A DNA stretch of 24,000 bases from Planctomycetes bacterium GWC2_45_44 (GTDB lineage Bacteria > Planctomycetota > Phycisphaerae > Sedimentisphaerales > UBA12454), in the NCBI GenBank assembly GCA_001824555.1, contig MHXU01000137.1:25439-49438 (forward strand). Direction: 5' to 3'. The notes beneath the pieces were generated by a model that ran no database searches, was not told where the DNA came from, and saw only the letters and a list, made by a program, of their open reading frames with translations. Below, piece by piece: positions 3,680 to 24,000 of this stretch (the stretch's first letter is position 1; each line of letters opens with the position of its first letter). Position numbers and translations under genes: made by a program.

Positions 3680-4168
3680 TTATTCTATGCTTATATATCC
3701 CGTTACCGATTCAATCTTTACTTTCATCGTGCCGCCCTGGGCTGTCAGAACAATCTCTCCATTGTTGACGCTGGGTGTTCCGAGATAATCAAAACTAATC
3801 GTATCGCCCGTGCCGAATGTCGTGCTTGTAATATCAACCTTATCAAGCCTGCTGTCGGATGCAAAAGTAACAGCGTAATTTTGTCCGACGCGAACCGGAT
3901 GTGCTATCGTCGCACCGGCAGTTTGTATGCAGTAGCTTTCCGCCGTCGTGTCGAAGACGACCTGATAGTTTTTGCCCGTGCTTATCGCCATACTCTTTGC
4001 GTATTCCAAATCCGAAGCAATCATATTCGCCGCCGCGCTCAACTGCACGCTCGCCGCCGAGGTGTACATCGGTATCGCAATCGCCGCGAGAATGCCGACG
4101 ATGATTACAACAATCATCACTTCAACCAGCGTGAACGCAGGCGTTCGATTTTTCATATTTTTCATCAT
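3680..4168 (-). CDS. Minor (pseudo)pilin, GspH/FimT-like, prepilin-type N-terminus
   Basis: 162 aa. The N-terminus MMKNMKNRTPA|FTLVEVMIVVIIVGILAAIAIPMY is a class III signal with Glu5; residue -1 is Ala rather than Gly. The following LSAAANMIASDLEYAKSMAISTGKNYQVVFD resembles the GspH/FimT family. Confidence 0.75.
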   Translation of the reverse strand: MMKNMKNRTPAFTLVEVMIVVIIVGILAAIAIPMYTSAASVQLSAAANMIASDLEYAKSMAISTGKNYQVVFDTTAESYCIQTAGATIAHPVRVGQNYAVTFASDSRLDKVDITSTTFGTGDTISFDYLGTPSVNNGEIVLTAQGGTMKVKIESVTGYISIE

Positions 4169-4328
4169 TTCCGCTCTTTAAACACAGTAAATCCGCGGTA
4201 ATTCCTTATATTGTTTCGTCTTATGTGAACTTGGGCTTAACCGCGTAAAAGTATGTTTTTGAATGAATGACTATGATGGTATGTTATTATCGGGCGTTGA
4301 GGGTGTTATTCTCGAAGATGACCGATAA

Positions 4329-4640
4329 TAAAAAAAAATCTAATTGCTAAATTCTAAATCCTAAACAATATCAAAACACAAACACCAATACTCAAAACAA
4401 CGAATTTAGCAACACTTTAGCCGACTGTAGTGCCGATATTTAGCCCTGAAAGGGCAAAATATATCAGCCCAGGGCAACGCCCTGGGTACGCTGTCCGCCA
4501 AAACACAAAGCCCTGAAAGGGCGAAATAATGCCGAATGCTGCAAATGGCTAAAGTGTTGCGAATTTACAAGTTTTGGTAATTTGAATTTTGGTTATTTGG
4601 ATTTGTTTAGAATTTAGATATTAGGATTTCGGATTTTTTT
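4329..4640. repeat. Composite imperfect palindrome: A-rich low-complexity left arm, GC-rich multi-hairpin core, T-rich right arm
   Basis: The left arm (aaaaaaaaatctaattgctaaattctaaatcctaaacaatatcaaaacacaaacacc...) and right arm (...ggtaatttgaattttggttatttggatttgtttagaatttagatattaggatttcggattttttt) are imperfect reverse complements. The core carries three GC hairpins: GCCC-TGAAA-GGGC twice and CCCAGGGC-AAC-GCCCTGGG. It sits between the PilX-like gene stop and the GspH-like gene. Confidence 0.75.
4409..4560. mobile_element. MITE-like non-autonomous element (14-bp perfect terminal inverted repeats, 7-bp flanking direct repeat)
   Basis: The TIRs are GCAACACTTTAGCC (4409-4422) and GGCTAAAGTGTTGC (4547-4560). 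GAATTTA lies immediately outside both ends (4402-4408 and 4561-4567), consistent with a target-site duplication. The 152-bp body has no ORF, only stacked hairpins. Confidence 0.5.
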
Positions 4641-6340
4641 TAGTTCCTTACTATTGACTTATAAAACGCCCCTGCCGCAGGCGACCAGCGGTCTTTTACG
4701 CCGCTCGGCCAATGCCACACCGCCGCCTTCAATGGAGCGGCGTTGATTGTCGTCGAGCAGCCTCCCGTATTCATATACCAGCAGCCGACAAGGTCAGTGC
4801 CAGCAGGCGAACCGCCGGTATAAAGTTCCCAAATTTCAACCGACGAAAGTCCCTTTTTCCAGACTTTCACGCTGTCTATTCTGCCGTTAAAGTATCTGCC
4901 CGTCATTTCGGAATTTTCGCCGATATAAACCGATGCCGAGTTTGTGCTGATGCTGCCGATGGCGTCCTGATAATTATCCAATACTCCATCGACATAAAGA
5001 TACATTCTGATGCCCGTATAAACACCCGCGACGTGATGCCACAGACCGTCATTAACGCTTCTTATGCCTATCAATATCGGATTGCTCGTACCGCTGCACG
5101 AAAACTCCATCCGGCCGGTATTTGAATATCTCTGCAGTCGCCAGCTTGAATCGCCCTTTGTAATTACCGCCTGATATGCTTTGTCGAAGGTGTTCACTCT
5201 TATCCACGCCGCGACTGTGATTTTGCTTGTAATATTCAGATTTGCCGCGTTTCCTATGTCTATGTAATCGCCGCTGCCGTCAAAATTTATGGCGCCGTCC
5301 AATTTACCGTCCGCGCCCGCACAATCTCCGTTTATAACACCATCATAGTGATTGCTGGAATAATCCGGCAAAATATATCGTATCCCGTCATCGACAATAA
5401 GCGAGCCGGTTATCGCTGTTGACTGATTTAGAACCGGCATTTCTATTCTGCCATCGACAAAAACAAGCCCGTCAATCGTTATCCTCGCGCCTTCTTTCAA
5501 TATAAGATTCCCGCTCACATAAATCGCCGGAGCGTTCTTCTTGGCGGTTATGATATTATTTGTGCCTGTAATCGTCAAATCGCCGTTCACCGCAAGACAG
5601 CCGTTAATAACGACATCGCTTATGATTTTCAAATCGCCGTTTCTGTAATAAACGACAGGCGTTCCACTTAATGTTACGTTGTTCAGACTGCTGCTGCCTA
5701 TGGGTTGCGTTGCAAAATTTGAAGTGAGCAGCGCATAAGTAATCGTCGGCCTGCTAAGAAGTGTTGTAAGGGCTGTTTTAGCGTTCAGTCTTCCTGTCGC
5801 GGCCGTACCTGTCAGCGCGTCAGCAAAGCAATCGCCATTAATAATTCCATCGTTTTCAAGGCTGTCGCTGCAATAAACATCGCCGTTCACGACCACGTTG
5901 GAATTATAATTAAATTGACAGCCGGTATTCGTCCAAAACGCCACCGCAGGGTCAAGACGAAGTTTCGCCGTCAAACTATTGGTTGCAAATTTTGAGCCGT
6001 TTTGCATTCTGTACGCGTCGGATTTGATTTGAAAATCAAGTTCGGAAGTTTTTGTTACATTCACATCATAATAATCCGAACCTGTGCTAAGTTGCTGTAC
6101 TAAATACACATTCGGCTCACCGGCCAAATCGTGCGGACACATAACAAGTCCCCTGCCGTGTGCAAGACCGGAATCAGCCAAATAGTCCATATCCGCCTTC
6201 ATTTCCATATTCTGGCCGAACGCAAGCTCCGCATCGCCGCGCACGATAAACCCAAGCCCGACAATCGTTATCACCCCAACAAGTATCAGCACAATAATCA
6301 GCACCATTCCTTTGGCATTATTATGACATTTACATTTCAT
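4640..6340 (-). CDS. Large minor pilin/pseudopilin: PilX_N/GspK-like N-terminus + beta-helix-like repeat region + C-terminal LamG (concanavalin-A-like lectin) domain
   Basis: 566 aa. The N-terminus KGMVLIIVLILVGVITIVGLGFIVRGDAELAFGQN is PilX_N/GspK style, with no Glu5. The central region has NGD/ING-rich repeats (VVVNGDVYCSDSLENDGIINGDCFAD, INGCLAVNGDLTITGTNNIITA, VSGNLILKEGARITIDGLVFVDGRIEM). The C-terminus has LDGAINFDGSGDYIDIGN...ITVAAWIRVNTF...GLWHHVAGVYTGIRMYLYVDGVL...VYIGEN...RYFNGRIDSVKVWKKGLSSVEI, the Laminin_G_3 pattern. Confidence 0.8.
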   Translation of the reverse strand: MKCKCHNNAKGMVLIIVLILVGVITIVGLGFIVRGDAELAFGQNMEMKADMDYLADSGLAHGRGLVMCPHDLAGEPNVYLVQQLSTGSDYYDVNVTKTSELDFQIKSDAYRMQNGSKFATNSLTAKLRLDPAVAFWTNTGCQFNYNSNVVVNGDVYCSDSLENDGIINGDCFADALTGTAATGRLNAKTALTTLLSRPTITYALLTSNFATQPIGSSSLNNVTLSGTPVVYYRNGDLKIISDVVINGCLAVNGDLTITGTNNIITAKKNAPAIYVSGNLILKEGARITIDGLVFVDGRIEMPVLNQSTAITGSLIVDDGIRYILPDYSSNHYDGVINGDCAGADGKLDGAINFDGSGDYIDIGNAANLNITSKITVAAWIRVNTFDKAYQAVITKGDSSWRLQRYSNTGRMEFSCSGTSNPILIGIRSVNDGLWHHVAGVYTGIRMYLYVDGVLDNYQDAIGSISTNSASVYIGENSEMTGRYFNGRIDSVKVWKKGLSSVEIWELYTGGSPAGTDLVGCWYMNTGGCSTTINAAPLKAAVWHWPSGVKDRWSPAAGAFYKSIVRN

Positions 6341-6349
6341 TAAATCCCA

Positions 6350-6446
6350 TCGGCCGTTAGTTTTGTAGGGTGGGCTTTAGCCCACGCGGTTTTTCTGTCA
6401 TTCCCGCGCAGGCGGGAATCCAGCATAAAACAGTTTCGGCCGTTAG
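6350..6446. mobile_element. Putative 75-bp insertion (two palindromic units) flanked by an 11-bp direct duplication, splitting a hairpin module
   Basis: TCGGCCGTTAG occurs at 6350-6360 and again at 6436-6446. The 75 bp between them contains GTAGGGTGGGCTTTAGCCCACG and GTCATTCCCGCGCAGGCGGGAATC. Deleting one repeat copy plus the insert restores cccATCGGCC-GTTA-GGCCGATtccaca. That is the same stem as the intact module at 8735-8752. Confidence 0.55.
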
Positions 6447-6494
6447 GCCGATTCCACAGTTTTTCACTTTTCACTTTTAGTTTTTAACTCTTTT
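6436..6494 (+). repeat. Hairpin-TTCCACA-tandem array module (copy M1, right half)
   Basis: TCGGCC GTTA GGCCGA (6436-6451) is followed by TTCCACA, then gtttttcacttttcacttttagtttttaactctttt. Positions 6450-6494 are identical to 7301-7345 (45/45). The module ends on the stop codon of the 6493..7155 gene. Confidence 0.85.
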
Positions 6495-7155
6495 ACATAT
6501 CGTCATCGCTCGAAATAATCGCTGTTCCGCTGCTGTTAAGCAGATACCCCCCCTGCGCACGCAAAAACGCCGAGCACTGATAATTTTGAGTAACTCCTTT
6601 TTGCTGAACGCCGAAAAACAAATTGAGCTTTTTGGAAAAAGGAGCCGCCGCATCAGTCGTAAATGTTACATAACTGCAATTCGTAATAAGCGTAATATAA
6701 CTCGGCACACAGCCGGCTTTCATCGCATCTTTTGTAGTGCTTATGCCTATTGCCGCAAGCGTAAGGCCGGACAATGCCGCTACTCCCGTCGGCTTAAACG
6801 ACAAAAACCGGATTTCGCTGCCGCTTTCCGTTTCGATATAGACTAATTCGCCCGGATTGATTTTATTATCGCCGTTGTCGTCCGCCCGCCAGATTGCGAC
6901 TTCTGTGCCGGAATTATAACAAATCAGCTTGCAGTTTTTGACTAATTCGCCCAATCGGATTGTTGTGTATCTGATTCTGCTCTGGATTTCTGATGTATCA
7001 TCGGCAGAGTCATTTGCCGAGCCGAGCGCAAAGGCCAGCGTAGCGATCGCGGCAAGAATAATGCCCGTAACCGTCATCGCCATTATCATTTCCGCAAGCG
7101 TAAAACCGTTATTTTTTATTATCTGTTTCACTGATAACCGTTTTTTTAAATCCAT
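6493..7155 (-). CDS. Minor pilin, PilW/GspJ-like, prepilin-type N-terminus
   Basis: 220 aa. The N-terminus is MDLKKRLSVKQIIKNNG|FTLAEMIMAMTVTGIILAAIATLAFAL (G-1, F+1, E+5). Its size and position (third pilin gene) fit a PilW/GspJ-class subunit. Confidence 0.75.
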   Translation of the reverse strand: MDLKKRLSVKQIIKNNGFTLAEMIMAMTVTGIILAAIATLAFALGSANDSADDTSEIQSRIRYTTIRLGELVKNCKLICYNSGTEVAIWRADDNGDNKINPGELVYIETESGSEIRFLSFKPTGVAALSGLTLAAIGISTTKDAMKAGCVPSYITLITNCSYVTFTTDAAAPFSKKLNLFFGVQQKGVTQNYQCSAFLRAQGGYLLNSSGTAIISSDDDM

Positions 7156-7207
7156 CGGCTTCAGCCGATTCCAAAATTATTCATTATTCACTATTCATTA
7201 TTCATTT
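7145..7207 (+). repeat. Hairpin-TCCAAAA-heptamer array module (copy M2) overlapping the start codon of the 6493..7155 gene
   Basis: The layout is TTTAAATCC, then ATCGGC TTCA GCCGAT (7154-7169), then TCCAAAA, then (ATTCATT/ATTCACT)x4. The minus-strand ATG (7155-7153) has its A and U inside the stem. Confidence 0.8.
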
Positions 7208-7220
7208 GCTTTTCAGCTTT

Positions 7221-7273
7221 GTAGGGTGGGATCTTCCTGTCCTCCGTAGCTTTAGCGAAGGGGGAAGCCCACG
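7221..7273. repeat. Extended GTAGGGTGGG...GCCCACG palindromic unit flanked by CAGCTTT direct repeats
   Basis: The sequence is gtagggtgggatcttcctgtcctccgtagctttagcgaagggggaagcccacg. Outer arms GTGGG/CCCAC and CTTCC/GGAAG pair. It is an expanded version of the 6365-6386 unit (GTGGGC TTTA GCCCAC). CAGCTTT occurs at 7214-7220 and 7274-7280. Confidence 0.55.
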
Positions 7274-7277
7274 CAGC

Positions 7278-7345
7278 TTTAAAATCTCATCGCCGAAGGC
7301 GATTCCACAGTTTTTCACTTTTCACTTTTAGTTTTTAACTCTTTT
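7278..7345 (+). repeat. Hairpin-TCCACA-tandem array module (copy M3)
   Basis: The layout is TTTAAAATCTC, then ATCGCC GAA GGCGAT (7289-7303), then TCCACA, then the same 45-bp tail as M1. It ends on the stop codon of the 7345.. gene. Confidence 0.85.
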
Positions 7346-7785
7346 TATTTGCTTTTTAACCTTACAATCTCCGCAAGTTTCGTACCGTCCTGATAAACGC
7401 TAACCGTTATCTTTATAAAATTCGGACTGCCATAACTGCTCTGCTGCGGCATATAAACATAAACACAGGAGGCCGTTCTACTTAATGAAGCGTACATTGA
7501 ATCTGTTAAATCTATCCCTGCCGCCGATTTGATATGCCCTTTGGATTCTGTATAGCTGCCGTAACTTGAAACAATCGAGCTAAAATCCGTCGCGATGATT
7601 TGTTCCATCAGGTCAGCGGCGAGCTTGGCGGCAAGCGTCTGATTATACCCCTGCTGCTGCACCGCCGCGCTCGATGCGAACGGCAGGAGCAATCCCGCCA
7701 CCGCTATCGTAAAGACCACAAGCGCAAGCATCGCCTCTGCAAGTGTAAAACCACTATGGCAACCTCTAAAAATACACCTTGTCAT
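7345..7785 (-). CDS. Minor pilin, PilV/GspI-like, prepilin-type N-terminus (start uncertain: ATG 7785 or GTG 7848)
   Basis: The mature end is ...CHSG|FTLAEAMLALVVFTIAVAGLLLPF, PilV-like. The track ORF starts at GTG 7848 and gives an atypical 33-aa leader whose codons 10-28 are a palindromic repeat unit. ATG 7785 gives a normal 12-aa leader (MTRCIFRGCHSG). Neither start has a clear SD. Confidence 0.7.
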   Translation of the reverse strand: MTRCIFRGCHSGFTLAEAMLALVVFTIAVAGLLLPFASSAAVQQQGYNQTLAAKLAADLMEQIIATDFSSIVSSYGSYTESKGHIKSAAGIDLTDSMYASLSRTASCVYVYMPQQSSYGSPNFIKITVSVYQDGTKLAEIVRLKSK

Positions 7786-7819
7786 TGCGAGCGTAGCGAA
7801 GCAATCTCGTTTTTTAGAG
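7764..7819. repeat. Palindromic unit (GTCATTGCGAGCGTAGCGAAGCAATC) nested in a 9-bp inverted repeat, inside the 5' end of the PilV-like ORF
   Basis: CTCTAAAAA (7764-7772) pairs with TTTTTAGAG (7811-7819). These arms enclose GTCATTGC...GCAATC (7781-7806). The termini match the units at 6397-6420 and 17608-17634. Confidence 0.7.
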
Positions 7820-7884
7820 CTACCCTTATATTTTGTAAATTTCTTCACTGATAACCGATAACTGATAACTGCGTTTCTGTTTTT

Positions 7885-7923
7885 AAAAAAAACGGCTGGT
7901 CAGCCCCGAAAGACCGACCAGCC
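7885..7923 (-). terminator. Rho-independent terminator after the major pilin gene
   Basis: The minus strand reads GGCTGGTCggtctttcggggctGACCAGCC followed by TTTTTTTT (plus-strand A-run 7885-7892). The stem is an 8-bp GC-rich stem (7894-7901 with 7916-7923). It lies 42 nt downstream of the pilin stop. Confidence 0.85.
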
Positions 7924-7964
7924 TGTATTGTCTTTTTCGATTCTATCGAAACTTCATCGTCAGA

Positions 7965-8417
7965 TTAGTAAGCAGCGTGGGCAGCCGTGTCGTTGGCGTT
8001 AAACGCGCCGGTAGAGGTATTGAAATACCAGCCCTTGCCATCGATAGTAGGAGCAACCACACCTTCTACTACAGTTGCCGCGTCCGCTCCGGTAACATAC
8101 GGATTCTTCGGTATCGCCTGCAGGTAAGGACCAACAGCTCCTGATGTGCCGACTGCGACTGTCGCACCGGCAATGCTCGTAACGCCGGTTAACGCAGCGG
8201 TGAAATCTGCTGTTCCAGCTCCCGGCAACGCGCCATTGTGCTGAATCTTATAAAGTTGAATCTGCGAACGAACAGTCTGCAGATTGCTTGTAAGACTCGA
8301 CAGGTTGGCCTGTTCGCTGGCATCGCTGAACTGCGGTATGACAATCGCGGCCAGAATGCCCAAAATAACCACGACGATCAAAATTTCGACCAATGTAAAA
8401 CCATTTCTTTTTTTCAT
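7965..8417 (-). CDS. Major pilin/pseudopilin, GspG/PilA-like
   Basis: 150 aa. The N-terminus is MKKRNG|FTLVEILIVVVILGILAAIVIPQF, a canonical prepilin signal. LQTVRSQIQLYKIQHNGALPG resembles the GspG motif ...LDLYKLDNGRYP. AAGGAG lies 8 nt upstream of the ATG. It is the first gene of the locus and is followed by a strong terminator, which is typical for a highly expressed major subunit. Confidence 0.85.
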   Translation of the reverse strand: MKKRNGFTLVEILIVVVILGILAAIVIPQFSDASEQANLSSLTSNLQTVRSQIQLYKIQHNGALPGAGTADFTAALTGVTSIAGATVAVGTSGAVGPYLQAIPKNPYVTGADAATVVEGVVAPTIDGKGWYFNTSTGAFNANDTAAHAAY

Positions 8418-8724
8418 TTTTCTTGCTCCTTATAAGGAATTTACTGTTTTTTTGTCAATTTATTCTAAACTGGTATCGGCTAACCGGTACGCCCGCTTAA
8501 CCCGCACACCACATTGGCAACAAAATCATTTATAAAACCATTTTACGTCCCATAACATAAAGGCGGCATCAACCGCCCTTTTGCGGCGATTGAATATGCC
8601 GGTGAAAGCATAAGAAATGATTTTGGAATATGCAAAAATTGCGCGAACTTTTTCACATTTTTTTTTAACGCCCGATAATACCACGACGACGTAATCAGAG
8701 CCGCGACAGTAATGGAGCGGTCAA

Positions 8725-8797
8725 TTAAACTCTCATCGGCCATCAGGCCGATTCCACAACTTTGTGCCTATGTGCCTTTGCTACTTTGTGCCTTCAC
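8725..8797 (+). repeat. Hairpin-TCCACA-tandem array module (copy M4)
   Basis: The layout is TTAAACTCTC, then ATCGGCC ATCA GGCCGAT (8735-8752), then TCCACA, then actttgtgcctatgtgcctttgctactttgtgccttcac (about 4 degenerate TTTGTGCC units). Confidence 0.8.
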
Positions 8798-8826
8798 AAT
8801 AAAAACCGAATTATTTACTCCTTAAT

Positions 8827-8923
8827 AAAACTTGCAAAAACCACATCAAAAACCATCAAAATCCCCGAAAACCCACGCAATTCGCAGTTAAAATCGTCAA
8901 AACCCGTCAAAAATTTGCAAAAA
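8827..8923. promoter_or_regulatory. Array of helically phased A-tracts (predicted intrinsically curved DNA)
   Basis: A4-A5 runs start at 8827, 8836, 8848, 8858, 8868, 8890, 8899, 8909 and 8919. That is 92 bp over 9 helical turns, about 10.2 bp per turn. The degenerate unit is CAAAAMCCNN. The array lies in the divergent pilin/rny intergenic region. Confidence 0.7.
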
Positions 8924-9091
8924 CTTTCAATTTTTTGCAATTTACTTGCAGACCTTTAATATCTACAAGTGGTTTTTTGATGCTAAATAAGGTTTTTCCG
9001 CAAAATTGCCCTAAAAAAAATGGAAAATTTGCGCAAGTTTTCAAAAAAATTCTTTTTTTATAAACTTATATAAAAATTTTTGACCTTGATT

Positions 9092-9120
9092 TTGCCGATA
9101 AGACAATGTACAGTTAATAT
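9092..9120 (+). promoter_or_regulatory. Candidate sigma70-type promoter (TTGCCG-17-TAATAT) with A/T-rich upstream element
   Basis: The -35 is TTGCCG (9092-9097), the spacer is 17 nt, and the -10 is TAATAT (9115-9120). It is preceded by aaaaaaattctttttttataaacttatataaaaattt. It faces rny, about 430 nt upstream of the rny ATG. Confidence 0.4.
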
Positions 9121-9546
9121 GTGGTTTGCGATTTGCCGACTGTGCAGTCCGCAGCGGACGTTCGCAAAGGCAGGGACGAAAGTCCTTTTTAGTGTTGTTA
9201 AAGTTACAAAAACACTGTGAGCCGGCTTCTCGGCGTTAGAGGTTTCTCAAGTCGAGAGGTTTTGTGAGTTAAAAGGCAACATCGGTGACTAAGAAAAGTG
9301 AAATCTATCTAAAAAACTATGAATTTGGAAGCAGTGAAACTCAAAAAATCAAAAATATCAGAGCCGGGCATATTGTCTGCGGGGGTTCGTAAGAAACCTA
9401 TCTAAACAGGGAAAACCTGAAAATCTGAATTTTTGAAATGGATTTCAACTTTTTTCATCTCTTGTAACTTTTCACCTCTGCCTTGCGCTGTCTGTTTTCG
9501 CAAATCAATTCTTGATAGTAGACAACGTATAGGAAAGGTTTGAAAA

Positions 9547-11127
9547 ATGGATATTTTAGCTTTAACCGGCAATGCCGCCATTGCCGGAATCGTCATCGGG
9601 GGGATTGTTTTGGGTGTAGTACTGGCATTTGTTGCCGGTAAAATTATCGCAACAATAAAGACAACCAATCTCAAAAAAGACCTGCAAAAACAAATCGAAG
9701 AGGCAAAACAGCAGGCGGAAAATATCATCAGGGCTGCCAATCTTGACGCAACCGCTGAAACACTGAAAAAAAGAGAGATATTTACCGCGGAAGCCAACCA
9801 GGCAAAGGCTGAAATTCGCGAAGCGGAAAGAAGATTAACCAAACACGAAGACGCTATCGAAAGACAAAACGACCAAATCGCCCAGCGTGAAAAACACCTT
9901 CAGCAGACCGAGCAGAACTTAAAAAATCGTGTCAGCCAGCTTGACGAACGCGAAAAAGAAATCGGCGTTACAATCGCTCAACAGAAAAACCAGCTCCTCA
10001 AAATTACCGCGATGAACGCCGAGGAAGCCCGACAACTGCTGCTCAAAAAGCTCGAAGACGAATGTGAGCAGGAAATGAGCGTAATTATCCAGCGTAAAAC
10101 CGAAGAAATGCTGGAAGCGGCTGAAGACAAGGGCAGAGAAATTATCAGCTCGGCCATTCAGCGATACGCCGCCGACCAGACCTGCGAAGTAACCGTCTCG
10201 ACAATCGACATTCCAAGCGACGATATGAAAGGCAGAATCATCGGCAGAGAGGGCAGAAACATTCGAGCGTTTGAAAAAGCGACCGGCGTTGATGTCGTCG
10301 TCGATGACACGCCCGGCGTTATCGTAATCAGCGGGTTCAACCCCGTAAGAAGAGAAGTCGCCAGACTTTCGATGGAAAGGCTCATTCAGGACGGCAGAAT
10401 TCATCCGAGCAGAATCGAAGAACTCGTCGCGCAGACCAAAAAAGACGTAATTCAGAAAATTATGCAGGTCGGCAAAGAAGCCACGGTCGAGGTGGACGTT
10501 CGCGGCCTTAACAATAAAATTATTATGGAAATCGGAACGCTCAATTATAGAACGAGCTATGGCCAAAACGTCCTGCGGCACAGCGTAGAAGTCGCATTTC
10601 TGGCGCAGGTGATGGCAGACGAGCTTGGGTTAGACGGCTCAATCGCCAGAAGAGCAGGCCTGCTGCACGATATCGGCAAGGCGATGGACCACGAAATCGA
10701 AGGCGGCCACCCTGCAATCGGCGCAAACTTCCTCAAGAGATACAACGAGTCGCCGATAATCCTTAACGCAGTCGAAGCACACCACGGCGACATAGCGGCG
10801 GATAACCCATATTCACCTTTAATAGCCGCCGCTGACGCAATCAGCGCATCACGGCCGGGCGCAAGAAGAGAAACGCTCGAACGCTATATCAAGCGGCTCG
10901 AAAAACTCGAAGAAATCGCCAACACGTTCAAAGGCGTTGAAAGCTGCTACGCGATTCAGGCGGGCAGAGAAATTCGCGTTATCGTCAACGCCAATAATGT
11001 TGACGATGAAAACGCCAACAAGACGGCAAGAGACATCGCCAAGAAGATAGAAGAAGAAATGACCTATCCGGGCGAAATCAAGGTTACGCTGCTGCGTGAA
11101 GTTCGCTGTGTCGAATACGCAAGATAG
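9547..11127 (+). CDS. rny: Ribonuclease Y
   Basis: 526 aa. It has an N-terminal TM helix ([21 protein letters not shown]) and a long coiled coil. A KH domain follows ([33 protein letters not shown]). An HD domain follows that ([20 protein letters not shown]...[10 protein letters not shown]...AVEAHHGD). The RBS is AGGAAAGG. Confidence 0.95.
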
Positions 11128-12001: not shown

Positions 12002-12003
12002 CT

Positions 12004-12143
12004 CTAAATCAAATATCAAAATGTAAAAATCAAAATGACAAATCAAAAATAAAAAATAGTCTGCCGCCCGTCGAGAGCCTCTGGGTCGAACGAAAGGCAA
12101 TCCATAATTTTGATATTTAATTTTTGATTTTTGATATATTTTG
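12004..12143 (+). repeat. Low-complexity palindrome with GC core and ATCCATA motif (module copy M7, two-armed)
   Basis: The left arm is ctaaatcaaatatcaaaatgtaaaaatcaaaatgacaaatcaaaaataaaaaat. The core is agtCTGCCgcccgtcgagagcctctgggtcgaacgaaaGGCAatccata. The right arm is attttgatatttaatttttgatttttgatatatttt. It lies between ymdB and xseA. Confidence 0.65.
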
Positions 12144-12148
12144 AAACT

Positions 12149-13610: not shown

Positions 13611-13620
13611 GGGATAGGGT

Positions 13621-13690
13621 ATAAAAAAGTTCTGCCGACAGGCAGTTCCTTAATTTTTATTTTTGATTTTTTATTTTTGATTTTCTTCCG
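13621..13690 (+). terminator. Module copy M6: hairpin-TTCCTTA-T-rich tandem array; probable xseB terminator
   Basis: CTGCC GACA GGCAG (13632-13645) is followed by TTCCTTA, then (TTTTTATTTTTGA)x2 and ttttc. It starts 11 nt after the xseB stop. Confidence 0.55.
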
Positions 13691-17589: not shown

Positions 17590-17607
17590 AAAAACGCAGT
17601 TTTGGGT

Positions 17608-17634
17608 GTCATTTCGACGCGAAGCGGAGAAATC
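17608..17634. repeat. GTCATT...AATC palindromic unit
   Basis: The sequence is GTCATTTCgaCGCgaaGCGgaGAAATC. The outer stem is ATTTC/GAAAT and the inner stem is CGC-GAA-GCG. The termini match the units at 6397-6420 and 7781-7806. Confidence 0.7.
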
Positions 17635-17636
17635 TA

Positions 17637-17705
17637 TTTAAAATCTTCTTCGCCGCAGGCGAGTTCCATATTTTTTATTTTTGATATTTTATTTTTGATT
17701 TTCTT
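17637..17705 (+). terminator. Module copy M5: hairpin-GTTCCATA-T-rich tandem array between convergent genes
   Basis: The layout is TTTAAAATCTTCT, then TCGCC GCA GGCGA (17650-17662), then GTTCCATA, then ttttttatttttgatattttatttttgattttc. The left flank is nearly identical to M3 (tttaaaatctcatcgcc). It probably terminates the 16882..17589 transcript. Confidence 0.55.
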
Positions 17706-19082
17706 TTAATGTTCCACCGGCTCGCCGAGTATTGCTTTGATTTCGGCAAGCTGCTTATCGAGTACGTCCTTTGTTTTTGCTTCGATATTCAGTCTCAAAA
17801 ACGGTTCGGTATTGCTTGCCCTGCAGTTGAACCACCAGTCCTTAAACTGAATTGTTATGCCGTCAAGGTCGTCGGCCTCGCCCTGACTGAATTTTTTGCT
17901 CAATTCCTTCATCATCGCGTCTTTGTCTTCGACGGCAAAATTGATTTCGCCGCTGGAGAAGTACCGCTTCAAAGGTTTGACAAGTTCGCTCATCGGCTGC
18001 GACGCTCTGCTCAAAATGTTTATTAAATGGACGAGCGTTATAAATCCGGAATCTGCGAAGAAATTATCGCGATAGTAAAAATGCCCGCTCAATTCGCCGC
18101 CGAAAATCGCTCTTGCGGTTCGCAGCGTCTTTTTCATAAACGAATGTCCGACTCTTTCGCGTCTCGGCAGACCGCCGTATTTTAAAACTTCTTCACGAAC
18201 AACCCAACTGCTCCGCAGGTCATAAACTATTGCGGCGCCTGGATTTTTTTCGAGAAAATACTGCGCCAAAAGAGCGGTCATAATATCGCATCCGATAGTC
18301 TGACCGGTTTCATCAACCACAACTAATCTGTCGGCATCGCCATCAAAACATATTCCGACATCAGCCTTGCGTTTTTTCACTGTAGCCTTAAGCTGTGCCA
18401 GATTACTCTCGACAAGCGGATTTGGCTCGTGCTTAAACGTGCCGTCGTGTTCAAAGTTCAGCCTGATAATCTCGATACCCAAATCCTCAAAAATAAGCGG
18501 AACCATTTTGCCGGCCATTCCGTTTGACGCGTCAATAACCATTTTCAGGGGCTTTACTTTCGCATCAAGAAATTTCAGAATGTGCTGTTTGTAAGCCTCG
18601 GTAAGGTCGTATTTTTCAATCGCCCCGTCCATAACCCCGTGCGTATGAAGCAGCGCGGTGGCGATGTGCTTTATTTCCTTAAGGCCGGTGTCCTGTCCGA
18701 CAGGCTTGGCCTCAAGACCGGAAATTTTGAAGCCGTTATATTGTGCCGGATTATGCGAGGCGGTAACCTGAACGCCGCCGCAGGTGCCGAGATGATTTAT
18801 CGCGAAATAAATCTGCGGCGTGTCAATCATTCCGATATCTATTACGTTTGCTCCCGCCGCGTTCATACCGGCTATCAGCGCATCGGACAAACCAGTGCTG
18901 TGTGTCCGCATATCTCGACCTACACATAAACTCTGACGATTGGCCAAACCACGCTCGTAACCGCGCAAAAGCGACCTTAAAAATGACGCAGTCGCGTTGC
19001 CGATTTTCCACGCGGCATCTTCGTTTAACTGGTCAGGATAAAGTCCTCGAATGTCATAAGCCTTGAAAATTTTCGGGTCCAT
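17706..19082 (-). CDS. Phosphomannomutase/phosphoglucomutase (alpha-D-phosphohexomutase family)
   Basis: 458 aa. It has MDPKIFKAYDIRG and the active-site loop GGVQVTASHNPAQYNGFK. The Mg site is ICFDGDADRLVVVD, the sugar-binding loop is GGELSGH, and the phosphate-binding C-terminus is FNCRASNTEPFLRLNIEA. Confidence 0.93.
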   Translation of the reverse strand: MDPKIFKAYDIRGLYPDQLNEDAAWKIGNATASFLRSLLRGYERGLANRQSLCVGRDMRTHSTGLSDALIAGMNAAGANVIDIGMIDTPQIYFAINHLGTCGGVQVTASHNPAQYNGFKISGLEAKPVGQDTGLKEIKHIATALLHTHGVMDGAIEKYDLTEAYKQHILKFLDAKVKPLKMVIDASNGMAGKMVPLIFEDLGIEIIRLNFEHDGTFKHEPNPLVESNLAQLKATVKKRKADVGICFDGDADRLVVVDETGQTIGCDIMTALLAQYFLEKNPGAAIVYDLRSSWVVREEVLKYGGLPRRERVGHSFMKKTLRTARAIFGGELSGHFYYRDNFFADSGFITLVHLINILSRASQPMSELVKPLKRYFSSGEINFAVEDKDAMMKELSKKFSQGEADDLDGITIQFKDWWFNCRASNTEPFLRLNIEAKTKDVLDKQLAEIKAILGEPVEH

Positions 19083-21332: not shown

Positions 21333-21414
21333 TAAAATTAAACCTTCCCGGCTTGCCGGCTGGACCACCCAGCCCCCTTTCAACCTTCAAACCGGGCTGA
21401 AGACTTAATGGCCA

Positions 21415-22393: not shown

Positions 22394-23218
22394 CTAATAG
22401 CCTGGACCCCAAAATTCCGGCTTGCTGTCGGCGTTTGGAAGTGTCAGTTCCGGCCAGAACATATAGCTGCTGCCGATGTAATTTAACGGCACAAATTCGG
22501 TTTCTACGGCACAGGCGATACCTCTGACATTATCTATATGCCCGTCAACAAACATTACATTCATCGCGCCGTTGTGATAAAACCCGCTTGTCAACCTGTG
22601 GTGGCCGGCCAAAGCTAAATTCAACGCTTTAGTCTCCTTGCATCTGGCGTCATAAATTCTGCCCGCATAACTTGTCTCTGCCATAAGCATACAAGCCGAG
22701 GGCTGGCTGATTTGTGTGGATTTATAGCCGCCCGCCGGGCCGAGTTTTATTTCCACTGATGTCGCCGTCGCAACCTGGTAACAGCCGTTCGGAGCGAAAC
22801 TTGTCATACCGGCTGCGTGGGGAGAAGGCGGGCCATAACCAAGCGGGTGCGGGTCTTTGTCCTGCGGACAGAAAAATACCTCGGACAAATTTTGGGTCGG
22901 GTCTGCCGAAACCTGTTTGCCGACATAGGGCAGAAGCAGAATATGCCACAACTGCGTTCGCAACTGCTTATTAGGCGGCATCGTGCCATAAGGGTCGTGC
23001 GCCATTATTATCCTGTCCTGACAATCGACTGCATAAGCGCTCATTGCAAGTGAAATCTGACTCATTCGTTTTGCACAGATAATTCGCTTCGCGTTGTCTC
23101 GAGTTTTAATCAGAGCAGGCAGTAAAATCGCCAGCAGCATCGCAATAATTGAAATGACAACAAGTAATTCAACCAGCGTAAAAGCTTTGCGACGGAAATT
23201 TTGAATTACACTATTCAT
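22394..23218 (-). CDS. Prepilin-type N-terminal cleavage/methylation domain protein of the H-X9-DG family
   Basis: 274 aa. The N-terminus is MNSVIQNFRRKA|FTLVELLVVISIIAMLLAILLPAL. The C-terminus has HNGAMNVMFVDGH, which is H, 9 residues, then DG. This family is abundant in Planctomycetota, Lentisphaerota and Verrucomicrobiota. Confidence 0.85.
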   Translation of the reverse strand: MNSVIQNFRRKAFTLVELLVVISIIAMLLAILLPALIKTRDNAKRIICAKRMSQISLAMSAYAVDCQDRIIMAHDPYGTMPPNKQLRTQLWHILLLPYVGKQVSADPTQNLSEVFFCPQDKDPHPLGYGPPSPHAAGMTSFAPNGCYQVATATSVEIKLGPAGGYKSTQISQPSACMLMAETSYAGRIYDARCKETKALNLALAGHHRLTSGFYHNGAMNVMFVDGHIDNVRGIACAVETEFVPLNYIGSSYMFWPELTLPNADSKPEFWGPGY

Positions 23219-23240
23219 TATTCACTATTCATTATTCATT
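23213..23240. repeat. Heptamer tandem array (ATTCATT ATTCACT ATTCATT ATTCATT), identical to 7179-7206
   Basis: It is a 28/28 nt identical copy of the array in module M2. It fills the whole ccsA to H-X9-DG intergenic gap. It contains the H-X9-DG gene start codon (23218-23216). Confidence 0.85.
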
Positions 23241-24000
23241 ACATAGCGTAATTATGCAGACCGACAAAAATCCTCGACAGGTTCACCCACAGCAGCGTTA
23301 CGACAATAAACGCAAACCCCGTAAAAATCCAAATACTGTTAATCTTCGCGTATTTCACGCCGGTCATATAGCTTTGATGAAAATATGCCAGATATACAAG
23401 CCACGTTACCAGAGCCCACATTTCTTTCGGGTCCCAGCTCCAATAGTCTCCCCAGGCCAGCTTTGCCCAGAAACACCCAAGCACAAGCCCAAGCGTCAAC
23501 AGCGGAAACCCCAGACAAACTAATTTATAAGCTGAAAACTCATAATCGTTATTCGCTTTTGTAATCAGCCCCGCCCCCGCCTGACAGACGGCCTTGGTCA
23601 TTATGATATAGGCAAGCATATAAACCGCGACGTGCGGCACGAACAGCGGACTTTGCAGCGACGGCGAAAGATTCTGCGCCGCTGCGCTGAAAACAAATCC
23701 CGCCGGAAAAAGAACTATTATTCCGAGGAGCATATCCACAGCTTCACCGTCAATTTTGAGCAGCTTTTTACACAGCACGCTCAACGGAAAAACCATCATT
23801 CCCAAAAACAAAAACACCTCAAAAAGATTTTGCAGCGGAAAATGCCCGACGCTAAATCCCCGATAAACGCCGGATATGAGCGAAACCGCAAAACCAAGCG
23901 TATAAACAAACCACGCGGCTTTTCTGTGCCGCAGCTTATAAATCGCAAAAGCCAGCAAATACATCATCATCGTTTGATATATAAGCAAATGCTGAATTGT
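23239..24000 (-). CDS. ccsA: Cytochrome c biogenesis protein CcsA/ResC-like (heme-handling WWD protein); 5' end probably beyond the window
   Basis: It is a polytopic membrane protein with the Trp-rich signature WAKLAWGDYWSWDPKEMWALVTWLVYLAYFH and conserved His residues. The reading frame is still open at position 24000. Confidence 0.8.
   Translation of the reverse strand, partial: TIQHLLIYQTMMMYLLAFAIYKLRHRKAAWFVYTLGFAVSLISGVYRGFSVGHFPLQNLFEVFLFLGMMVFPLSVLCKKLLKIDGEAVDMLLGIIVLFPAGFVFSAAAQNLSPSLQSPLFVPHVAVYMLAYIIMTKAVCQAGAGLITKANNDYEFSAYKLVCLGFPLLTLGLVLGCFWAKLAWGDYWSWDPKEMWALVTWLVYLAYFHQSYMTGVKYAKINSIWIFTGFAFIVVTLLWVNLSRIFVGLHNYAM

Follow-up and report, generated by a model that had tools for sequence, protein, structure and literature searches.

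A modular family of non-coding hairpin repeats tied to gene 3′ ends in a group of uncultured Phycisphaerae

According to Di Nocera et al. (2013, PMC3733652), REPs are found for the most part behind coding regions, where the ORFs are unidirectional or convergent, and are transcribed; by definition, one end of the palindrome bears an unpaired tetranucleotide, GTAG or CGTC. The repeats described here, designated M, resemble REPs and BIMEs as short GC-rich palindromes that occur in many copies almost only in intergenic DNA, mostly downstream of coding regions, and that form mosaics with other short motifs. Their stems are kept by compensatory changes, they probably are transcribed and may influence termination or the stability of mRNA, and they are gained and lost between strains. 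The REP arrangement of a 20–40 bp palindrome in many intergenic copies, mainly behind ORFs in unidirectional or convergent contexts, is recognizable, with a palindrome that here is short (15–18 nt). In contrast to REPs and BIMEs, the M repeats possess a stem of only 6–7 bp with a heptamer array on one side, GGAAT and G(A)GATTTTAAA are conserved as their unpaired flanks, with no GTAG/CGTC tag, they are oriented according to the upstream gene (53 to 11), and no linked RAYT gene was present among the genes called in ~40 kb of the source contig. Neither GTAG/CTAC nor CGTC/GACG adjoins the stem in the consensus of 84 copies.

Three further systems bear comparison. STRRs are said to have been described by Mazel and colleagues in 1990 as tandem heptanucleotide repeats in the intergenic DNA of heterocyst-forming cyanobacteria. 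The M arrays likewise are short tandem arrays of 7-nt units, of several types per genome, that are situated between genes, but they derive from a different phylum and consist of different units. To our knowledge, STRR arrays have not been described as attached to conserved hairpins or as starting at stop codons. Intrinsic terminators can be made two-way by an upstream A-rich stretch. The M repeats share with terminators a GC hairpin followed by a U run, placed just past the stop codon and oriented as the gene is. However, the U run is short (~4) and starts 3–4 nt after the stem, most copies fail a terminator scan, the flanks are conserved in sequence across loci, and copies also lie within operons and differ from strain to strain. 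BOX elements of Streptococcus pneumoniae comprise modules of 45–60 nt in >100 dispersed copies. As in BOX, the M repeats are modular intergenic repeats, dispersed in >100 copies, with one module in variable tandem number and a predicted RNA fold, but the two have no sequence relation, the tandem unit of M repeats measures 7 nt, and one array type can be exchanged for another.

The hairpin family and its members in the window

The M-type repeats are a genuine modular family of short, mosaic, non-coding elements with a structurally constrained hairpin. The window, which is the whole 24,000-nt stretch of DNA analyzed, contained all seven stretches (M1–M7) that a preliminary description had singled out, with the sequence that it gave, and its proposal of such a family was borne out by the copies recovered with a covariance model and by the complementarity of the stem. 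The core is a GC hairpin of 6–7 bp, AUCGSC-loop-GSCGAU, with a palindrome of 15–18 nt between two very strongly conserved unpaired flanks, on the GGAAT side and the GAGATTTT side. The consensus of the 84 copies is TTAAAATC(T)C-ATCGSC-loop-GSCGAT-TCCACAA. M1–M4 have ATCGSC-loop-GSCGAT-TCC in common. The pattern ATCGSC-N3-6-GSCGATTCC matched three times in the window (M2, M3 and M4), always on the + strand, compared to 0.00 matches expected from 100 shuffles. At least 119 stretches in metagenome contigs fit the hairpin pattern, true members being recognizable from their flanks and tails. The covariance model was trained on 37 copies that included M1–M5, and these training members scored 49.1 (M3), 44.6 (M2), 44.6 (M4), 33.4 (M1) and 32.1 (M5) bits. 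M6, which was left out of training, was marginal with 23.6 bits (E 0.13), and the model scan of the window did not detect M7. Metagenome contigs of relatives yielded 72 further copies at E < 1e-3.

The single freely varying stem pair was G-C in 42, C-G in 36 and another combination in one of 79 distinct copies and therefore was complementary in 78/79, which is not a demand of the search pattern. Overall, 98.3% of stem cells were paired in a metagenome sample in which stem variation is under-sampled because the collecting pattern fixes most stem positions. Near-identical stretches of 40–60 nt recur at unrelated loci and in different genomes; within the window, M1 and M3 have 46 identical bases in common and M5 and M6 share 44 nt at 93%. 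Hairpin stability is low (−6.6 to about −13 kcal/mol), the z-scores of single-copy folds are unremarkable (−0.6 to −2.9), and the arrays are unpaired in predicted folds. Mismatch counts did not tell the folding strand apart (G-U 3 versus A-C 3). At the Rfam gathering threshold the whole window returned only tRNA and Acido-Lenti-1, and at E ≤ 1 the stretch 4100–9600 returned only Acido-Lenti-1, so that M repeats matched no Rfam family even at permissive thresholds. The preliminary description likewise had not matched them to a described REP/BIME/Correia-type family. The family is new to catalogues and is restricted to a lineage of uncultured Phycisphaerae, a narrow Sedimentisphaerales-like clade. 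The members and associated features in the window are as follows.

4325–4642, minus strand: larger two-armed element with the layout of M7, starting at the LamG stop codon, with A-rich/T-rich heptamer arms of ~90 nt
6341–6435, minus strand: spacer from the M1 hairpin to the LamG start, with modules TTCCCGC-GCAG-GCGGGAA and a GTAG-tagged GGGTGGGC-TTTA-GCCCAC hairpin
within 6341–6435, minus strand: second copy of TAACGGCCGA plus TGGGATTTA, immediately before the LamG ATG at 6340
6436–6492, minus strand: M1, in which array AAGAGTTAAAAACTAAAAGTGAAAAGTGAAAAAC abuts the TAA of pseudopilin p3 (6493–6495), then TGTGGAAT and the hairpin
6451–6436, minus strand: M1 hairpin TCGGCC-TAAC-GGCCGA, terminator-like on the minus strand
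7140–7212, minus strand: M2, with array (AATGAAT/AGTGAAT)n, TTTGGAAT, hairpin ATCGGC-TGAA-GCCGAT and GGATTTAAAAAAAC
7213–7274, minus strand: GTAG-tagged REP-like hairpin GCGTGGGC...CCCACCCTAC that separates M2 from M3 and contains a nested insert of 37 nt
7275–7344, minus strand: M3, in which the array abuts the TAA of pseudopilin p2 (7345–7347), then TGTGGAAT, hairpin ATCGCC-TTC-GGCGAT and GAGATTTTAAAGC
7847–7877, minus strand: hairpin-less array (CAGTTAT)n (array proper 7847–7871) before pseudopilin p2
8721–8797, minus strand: M4, with GGCACAAA-type array, TTGTGGAAT, hairpin ATCGGCC-TGAT-GGCCGAT, GAGAGTTTAATTGA and module CCGCTCCATTACTGTCGCGGCTCTGAT
12002–12148, plus strand: M7, two-armed, with an A-rich (AAATCAA)n array after the ymdB stop, a GC core with a nested module, and an inverted T-rich array
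13617–13690, no strand assigned: M6, a marginal member, with hairpin CTGCC-GACA-GGCAG between xseB and a tRNA gene and a T-rich array on the + strand
17635–17705, minus strand: M5, in which array (AAAATCA/AAAATAT)n abuts the phosphoglucomutase TAA (17706–17708), then ATGGAAC, hairpin TCGCC-TGC-GGCGA and AGAAGATTTTAAATA
23199–23241, minus strand: hairpin-less array that fills the spacer behind the stop codon at 23239–23241

Genuine GTAG-tagged hairpins occupy the same spacers as M repeats, as separate modules. The hairpin at 7213–7274 is uninterrupted at the equivalent place in relatives L205 and L206, in which the module pair of the 6341–6435 spacer also is found behind M-type hairpins. M5 is located between convergent genes and is followed by a REP-like hairpin at 17606–17632. 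M7 folds as a single long hairpin (−30.7 kcal/mol, z −3.9), and the larger element at 4325–4642 carries the Acido-Lenti-1 motif at its apex (4442–4486) and a U9 tail (−108.7 kcal/mol, z −9.4).

Orientation and position follow the 3′ end of the upstream gene

Where M repeats lie and which way they point depends on the 3′ terminus of the gene upstream, not on the chromosome strand. Among the 72 copies, which are on unrelated contigs, 64 cases could be resolved: in 53 the ORF on the array side ran towards the element, and in 11 it ran away from it (p = 1e-7); when a gene was present within 100 nt of the array side, 29 read towards it and two away. The modal gap between the stop codon and the end of the model was 17–31 nt. 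M1, M3 and M5 begin straight after minus-strand stop codons, as does one more copy just outside the window. Gene contexts were unidirectional (28), convergent (14) or divergent (4), and for 16 copies a co-directional gene starts <100 nt away. The orientation flips with the genes: L090 carries copies at 5023 (+) and 8130 (−) and L191 at 2906 (−) and 5446 (+), and in all four cases a gene runs into the array side. Eleven of the 64 copies (17%) follow no gene. These include M4, which occupies the 1.1-kb divergent region between pilin and rny and into which no called gene reads, and M6, which is an exception to the gene-orientation rule and is terminator-like on the minus strand.

The preliminary description viewed the common direction of all seven copies as strand polarity. 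The co-orientation holds within the window, where it arises because M1, M3 and M5 follow minus-strand genes and M2 is in tandem behind M3, with M4 behind no called gene, but the polarity does not, since it is the gene that copies track elsewhere. As orientation follows the neighboring gene, the appropriate working reading is the reverse complement of the strand used in that description. In gene direction the order is stop codon, A-rich array, GGAAT, hairpin and GAGAUUUUAAA. More fully, the stop codon is followed by a purine/A-rich array of 30–45 nt with 7-nt period, (U)GNGGAAU, the hairpin and G(A)GAUUUUAAA, after which there often is a second hairpin from another repeat family. A subsidiary suggestion, that the elements appear on the pilus mRNA as an A-rich tract plus hairpin, thus is the relevant reading, whereas a terminator role on the + strand was not supported. 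A scan for intrinsic terminators (GC-rich stem of ≥5 bp, loop of 3–8 nt, ≥5 T in eight bases from 0–2 nt after the stem) called none of M1–M7 on the + strand; on the minus strand it called M1 and M6 alone, and M2–M5 were called on neither. Most copies have a suitable stem and loop and fail because the U run begins 3–4 nt past the stem.

Arrays are a separate module and copies turn over between close strains

The arrays constitute a separate module that is able to exist alone and to grow in place. A period of 7 or 14 nt was evident in 63/82 arrays (77%) compared to ~14 expected, and ~ten tail types recurred across copies and genomes. It had been proposed that each copy possesses a private tandem unit. 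Instead, M1 and M3 carry an identical array, the TTTTGAT type is common to M5, M6 and M7, 29 nt at 23212–23240 are 100% identical to the M2 array, and the array types of M3, M4 and M7 also are present in other contigs. Nor do the flank, hairpin, TTCCAYA and array invariably form one unit, as hairpin-free arrays were found in the window (7847–7871 and 23212–23240) and in operon spacers of relatives; this independent occurrence of the arrays is an outcome that the preliminary description itself had listed as telling against its proposal. The array at 7847–7877 is conserved in L205 and L208, and its CAGTTAT unit also makes up the rny-ymdB and ymdB-xseA spacers of L006; the latter spacer is 17 nt in L205 and has grown to (CAGTTAT)n in L006. 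GTGGAAT, the last unit ahead of the hairpin, keeps the register of the array.

Closely related strains differ through gain, loss, duplication and re-tailing of copies. In the orthologous pilus operon, L208 lacks the elements, L206 has a single one, and both L205 and the window have several, and the pilus operons of strains that are ~95% identical in DNA display both presence/absence of copies and array swapping. M2 and M7 are missing from a strain with 95–97% DNA identity. M2 is a second copy in tandem behind M3 that L205 lacks at the corresponding site, and M7 is missing in L205, where the spacer is 17 nt, and in L006. The M3 orthologue in L206 has the same hairpin and a different array, and the M4 orthologue in L205 has an identical hairpin with a (CAGTAGN)n array. 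The L006 spacer orthologous to M6 has a stem that differs yet is complementary (TCGCC-GAA-GGCGA). No target-site duplication was detected when filled and empty sites were compared between p3 and LamG (window and L205 versus L206 and L208) or between ymdB and xseA (window versus L205 and L006), the whole spacer being replaced in each case. Terminal inverted repeats, which are a criterion for MITEs, were not seen at the compared sites, and no transposase domain was present among the genes called in ~40 kb of the source contig. The 10-nt repeat TAACGGCCGA that flanks the M1 insert was considered as a duplication and rejected: it belongs to the hairpin, and L205 has a different junction.

Competing explanations and significance

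The M repeats probably, if by no means certainly, are REP/BIME-like mosaic repeats of mRNA tails whose hairpin acts as a weak terminator or protects the 3′ end. The element would be transcribed into the 3′ UTR or intercistronic RNA, where the hairpin and short U run may form a weak or leaky terminator or a barrier against 3′ exonucleases, and the unstructured array may serve as a spacer behind the terminating ribosome. The repeats could spread via recombination, duplication or an unknown transposition route, copies surviving chiefly at those sites and in those orientations that do no harm. The conservation of the flanks exceeds the need of a plain hairpin and points to sequence-specific recognition, which the REP-like reading does not name.

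It is rather unlikely that the hairpins are the house-style intrinsic terminators of the clade, alike through a shared requirement of RNA polymerase/NusA instead of common descent or mobility. Gene-oriented copies straight after stop codons, the maintained stem complementarity, a conserved U4 run after the stem, the 14 copies between convergent genes, the minus-strand terminator calls for M1 and M6, and the xseB tail of L006 that keeps a hairpin with a different stem all fit this explanation. However, textbook terminators with stems of 10–13 bp and U8 exist in the same genome, at the pilin gene (7923–7894) and at 21333–21307, and the M hairpins fall short of that definition. The 16 copies with a co-directional gene start <100 nt away also are unfavorable, and a pilus operon without copies in L208 and with several in L205 is hard to square with efficient termination. 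Moreover, near-identity over 40–60 nt at unrelated loci and in different genomes argues for copying and not convergence.

An improbable alternative places function in the heptamer arrays: a protein with sequence-specific affinity for RNA or DNA would dock on them, the hairpin would be the anchor, and the ~ten types would mark different sets of genes. It draws on the strong 7-nt period (63/82 arrays), the limited repertoire of types that recurs between genomes, the exchange of types on a constant hairpin, and the GTGGAAT unit in array register, but has no known candidate protein; orthologous sites of close strains bear different arrays, which is unexpected for a gene-specific address, and arrays also grow in place like microsatellites. 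There is a very slight chance that the hairpin flanked by GGAAT and GAGAUUUUAAA is a docking or recombination site at which an unknown dedicated enzyme writes or exchanges heptad cassettes whose types are post-transcriptional address labels of mRNA tails. This is compatible with the data because arrays are swapped on an unchanged hairpin between ~95% identical strains, heptads and flank are in register, and the flanks are over-conserved; if true, it would be a templated, exchangeable system of 3′-UTR tagging. Finally, a DNA element set by replication direction independently of genes, such as a single-stranded-DNA mover like IS200/IS605 or REP-RAYT, would suit the single direction of all copies in 40 kb of the source contig, the co-orientation in most contigs with ≥2 copies and the 17% of copies behind no gene, but is highly doubtful given that co-oriented genes account for the co-orientation, that elements flip within ~3 kb where genes differ (L090 and L191), that a fixed stop-codon distance of 17–31 nt is unexpected under a replication-linked rule, and that the GTAG/CGTC tag is absent.

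The family by itself opens no long-standing question. It gives a phylum whose intergenic repeats are hardly described a well-defined repeat for which a covariance model is ready, and unites a REP-like hairpin with heptanucleotide arrays of the cyanobacterial STRR type, which usually are seen apart. Because one operon occurs in versions that have no, one or several copies and exchanged arrays, it provides natural experiments that could reveal effects on operon expression. In annotation, the repeats can be used as a marker for gene 3′ ends in these MAGs. Spacers of this type often are miscalled as ORFs or as extended N-termini, which here was the case for two pseudopilin genes.

Hairpin and array elements in the window and its relatives

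An uncultured Phycisphaerae (Sedimentisphaerales-like) bacterium from Rifle groundwater is the source of the 68-kb contig to which the window belongs. The same contig is carried by GCA_003528255.1, in which the apparent differences are runs of N, and a presence/absence polymorphism of M4 in that assembly was rejected because it reflects these assembly gaps. The genes of the window are arranged as follows.

Minus strand: type II secretion/type IV pilus-like operon (secretin, PilO/N/M, GspH, LamG protein, pseudopilins p3 and p2, major pilin)
Plus strand: rny, ymdB, xseA, xseB, a tRNA gene and cell-envelope genes
Minus strand, beyond the plus-strand cell-envelope genes: phosphoglucomutase

The seven hairpin and array stretches, M1 to M7, all were present where the preliminary description placed them. 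M2, M3 and M4 fit the pattern ATCGSC-N3-6-GSCGATTCC, which occurred three times in the window versus none in 100 shuffled sequences. The M1 hairpin is the same, with other repeat modules placed between it and the next gene start. M1 and M3 have 46 identical bases in common, and for M5 and M6 the common stretch is 44 nt at 93%. An Rfam search of the elements produced no match even at E ≤ 1. The original observation is real and statistically solid.

Public metagenomes were scanned with the pattern AAATC-N1-2-ATCGSC-N3-6-GSCGATTCC, yielding at least 119 fitting stretches. Chance matches were located in GC-rich coding sequence; true members were unmistakable from the flank TTTAAAATC(T)C, the hairpin, TCCNCAA and an AT-rich periodic tail. 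A covariance model built from an alignment (A3) of 37 copies, with M1 to M5 among the training sequences, found M1 to M5 in the window and M6 marginally (E 0.13), and did not detect the two-armed M7. In 16 kb of flanking sequence on the contig of the window, the model identified two additional copies, one good and the other degenerate. L006, the closest species representative, yielded two copies, and 72 were found at E < 1e-3 among the matches listed for metagenome loci; almost nothing was detected across ~650 kb of rny loci in Phycisphaerae that are more distant. In loci that were unselected for the element (the window, L006, and contigs L205, L206 and L208 with orthologous pilus operons) the density was ~1 copy per 6 kb; hundreds of copies per genome therefore is an extrapolation and not a count. 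No description of the family was found in literature on REP in Phycisphaerae, STRR, or REPIN/RAYT in Planctomycetes.

The stem is constrained. Among the matches listed, 98.3% of stem cells were paired in 79 distinct copies, and the sole stem position left free on both sides by the pattern was G-C in 42 copies, C-G in 36 and unpaired in one. The observed stem covariation score was reached by no shuffle, and none of the 20 pattern matches with non-complementary S positions resembled family members. The divergent members M5, M6 and those at loci L022 and L028 have other stems in which complementarity still is kept. Loops varied freely. The proposal that selection acts on structure rather than on sequence holds, with the caveat that the other stem positions were fixed by the sampling pattern. 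Folding energies of single-copy hairpins were small (-6.6 to about -13 kcal/mol) with z-scores of -0.6 to -2.9 which are not unusual compared to shuffles and, taken alone, are not evidence. The arrays, A-rich tracts of 7-nt period, remained unpaired in these predicted folds. Counts of G-U versus A-C mismatches, used as a test of which strand is folded, were three and three and favor neither.

Orientation with respect to flanking genes

ORFs were called in every locus and the flanking genes were scored on each side of each copy. Among resolved cases, the gene on the array side reads towards the element in 53 and away from it in 11 (p = 1e-7); within 100 nt the values were 29 and 2. The stop codon most often was situated 17-31 nt past the model end, so that the gap between model end and stop codon is filled by the array. 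On the side opposite the array, genes led away in 35 cases versus 19. The contexts comprised 28 unidirectional, 14 convergent and 4 divergent gene pairs. L090 and L191 each contain neighboring genes of different direction, and the elements there switch orientation with the genes over about 3 kb of a single contig; both orientations also occur on one 159-kb contig (L164, L202). Four copies begin directly after a stop codon.

6493-6495, minus strand: TAA, followed by M1
7345-7347, minus strand: TAA, followed by M3
17706-17708, minus strand: TAA, followed by M5
Right of the window: ribBA stop codon, followed by an extra copy

Orientation thus is linked to genes, and the meaningful reading is the reverse complement of that presented previously: stop codon, A-rich array, (T)GNGGAAT, hairpin, G(A)GATTTTAAA. 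Within the window all seven stretches do share one direction, as stated, but the strand polarity independent of genes that this was taken to reveal is unsupported. Of the five copies clearly detected by the model, three (M1, M3 and M5) come immediately after minus-strand genes, M2 is a second copy in tandem behind M3, and M4 has no called gene ahead of it, which accounts for the uniformity. In M7, the left arm conforms to the gene-tail rule with respect to plus-strand ymdB. M4 and M6 are real exceptions, a category that makes up 17% of the wider sample. M4 might form the end of a transcript that is not annotated, as its array side is immediately adjoined by a non-coding block of ~250 nt (8806-9061) in the divergent pilin-rny region. 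This block has a TTGCAAAA-like 10-nt periodicity; L102, L117 and L191 contain copies with 75-82% similarity, and similar text is present in L006 (500-700).

Additional observations concern gene boundaries. Listed starts of ORFs 6493-7155 and 7345-7848 probably are too far upstream, the extensions entering repeat modules. The p3 orthologues are 207 amino acids, which suggests a GTG start near 7131, and p2 was called as 146 amino acids (start 7785) in one assembly and 167 in another. In L210 (18637-18830) a degenerate copy lies behind a minus-strand tRNA gene and directly before a HAD hydrolase gene whose called start falls inside the copy. Upstream of rny, a stretch at 9128-9255 without an Rfam match is 77% conserved in L011 (9393-9524) within a spacer that otherwise is not conserved, and is a possible leader or small RNA.

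Turnover between strains and recurrence of arrays

Three orthologous operons were reached through p3 orthologues, and their spacers differ in element content.

Spacer content in the window and in orthologous pilus operons
p2-p3, L208: genes abut
p2-p3, L206: one element with the exact M3 hairpin, the same following REP-like hairpin and a TTGAAAA/TTGAAGA array
p2-p3, L205: M3 as in the window, without M2
p2-p3, window: M3, REP-like hairpin with nested insert, M2
p3-LamG, L208: 14 nt
p3-LamG, L206: 34 nt of (AGGGTAT)n
p3-LamG, window: 152 nt, M1 complex
p3-LamG, L205 (6763-7251): 489 nt, two copies and a duplicated p3 3′ end

The last ~18 nt of p3 in L205, here a 94%-identical strain, including the stop codon, were duplicated together with the array and hairpin; therefore at least some copies arise by local tandem duplication. 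The orthologue of M4 in L205 has an identical hairpin and downstream module with a (CAGTAGN)n array. M7 is absent from L205, which is 95-97% identical in DNA, and from L006. Neither target-site duplications nor terminal inverted repeats were found in the orthologous spacers compared. A target-site duplication around the M1 insert was rejected as the junction differs in L205, and the insert thus is better seen as a mosaic of modules.

The arrays had been considered private to each copy. This was not borne out, as about ten types recur between copies and genomes: GTGAAAA (with a AGTTAAAAACTAAAA lead-in in M1 and M3), GAATAAT, TTGAAGA, AAATCAA, ACAGAAG, CAGTAGN, GGCACAAA, TTATCAG, ACAAATT and CAACGTCGAA. 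Among 82 distinct array flanks the best self-match was at 7 nt in 45 and at 14 nt in 18, with about 14 expected, and period-7 arrays were enriched in relatives' loci compared to unrelated controls. Arrays also occur without a hairpin.

23212-23240: array identical to that of M2
7847-7871: array
rny-ymdB spacers of L006, L007 and L013: arrays
p3-LamG spacers of L206 and L208: arrays

In L205 the ymdB-xseA spacer measures 17 nt; L006 has this text expanded to (CAGTTAT)n, which shows that an array can grow in place. A role for arrays as stop codons in all three frames was rejected as too weak: 29 of 78 arrays had stops in every frame versus about 20 in shuffles, and several array types had none.

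Nature of the element and accompanying modules

The position, context statistics, mosaic clustering with other short hairpins and strain turnover of the element match descriptions of REP/BIME sequences. REPs are reported to be transcribed and to be found mostly after coding regions, in spacers between unidirectional and convergent genes (PMC3733652). Several hairpins that accompany M elements are GTAG-tagged. The M core has no GTAG or CGTC tag, unlike members of the tagged REP super-families, and membership in these therefore fails.

The proposal that the copies are plus-strand intrinsic terminators is unsupported. Compared to intrinsic terminators they are substandard, with a U run of about four bases that begins 3-4 nt after the stem, and of the M copies only M1 and M6 are picked up in a standard scan, both on the minus strand; textbook terminators exist in the same genome, for example after the pilin gene. 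A promoter (TTGTGG as -35; ATTTTA or TTTAAA as -10) was rejected: differences of up to 5 nt in loop and stem length leave the spacing unfixed, and the key bases A2 and T6 are missing from the -10 candidates. Overall, the headline interpretation of the preliminary description is not supported, and its side remark that the pilus mRNA carries an A-rich tract plus hairpin is the better description. We infer that a REP/BIME-like repeat of this type would ride in mRNA tails and between cistrons, where the hairpin would be at most a leaky terminator or a 3′-end protecting hairpin and the array would serve as an unstructured spacer. Anatomy, gene-linked orientation, stem constraint and turnover are themselves established here. 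Strain comparison indicates that the pilus operon functions with none or several elements.

The GTAG-tagged REP-like hairpin, TTTGTAGGGTGGGC-TTTA-GCCCACGCGG, is present at 6363-6390, at 7218-7277 and in many metagenome loci, and often follows an M element in other contigs. Nested within the copy at 7218-7277 is a 37-nt insert, which L205 and L206 lack. Gene callers push ORFs into three recurrent short modules.

7782-7808, read on the minus strand: CATTGCGAGCGTAGCGAAGCAATC, supplying the likely ATG of p2
17606-17632, read on the minus strand: GTCATTTCGACGCGAAGCGGAGAAATC
8690-8718, read on the minus strand: CCGCTCCATTACTGTCGCGGCTCTGAT

M7 is predicted to fold as one long hairpin (-30.7 kcal/mol, z -3.9). 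The LamG-GspH spacer (4325-4642, minus strand) forms a single predicted hairpin of 318 nt (-108.7 kcal/mol, z -9.4) that starts at the stop codon, ends with a U9 tail and has heptamer arrays as its arms. These predicted folds show that arrays can pair with inverted copies of themselves. The apex of the LamG-GspH hairpin is the Rfam Acido-Lenti-1 motif (4442-4486), listed in the literature as a candidate RNA only. As an 85% copy of this apex occurs in L088 (1257-1344), the Acido-Lenti-1 'sRNA' motif may be a repeat module in its own right.
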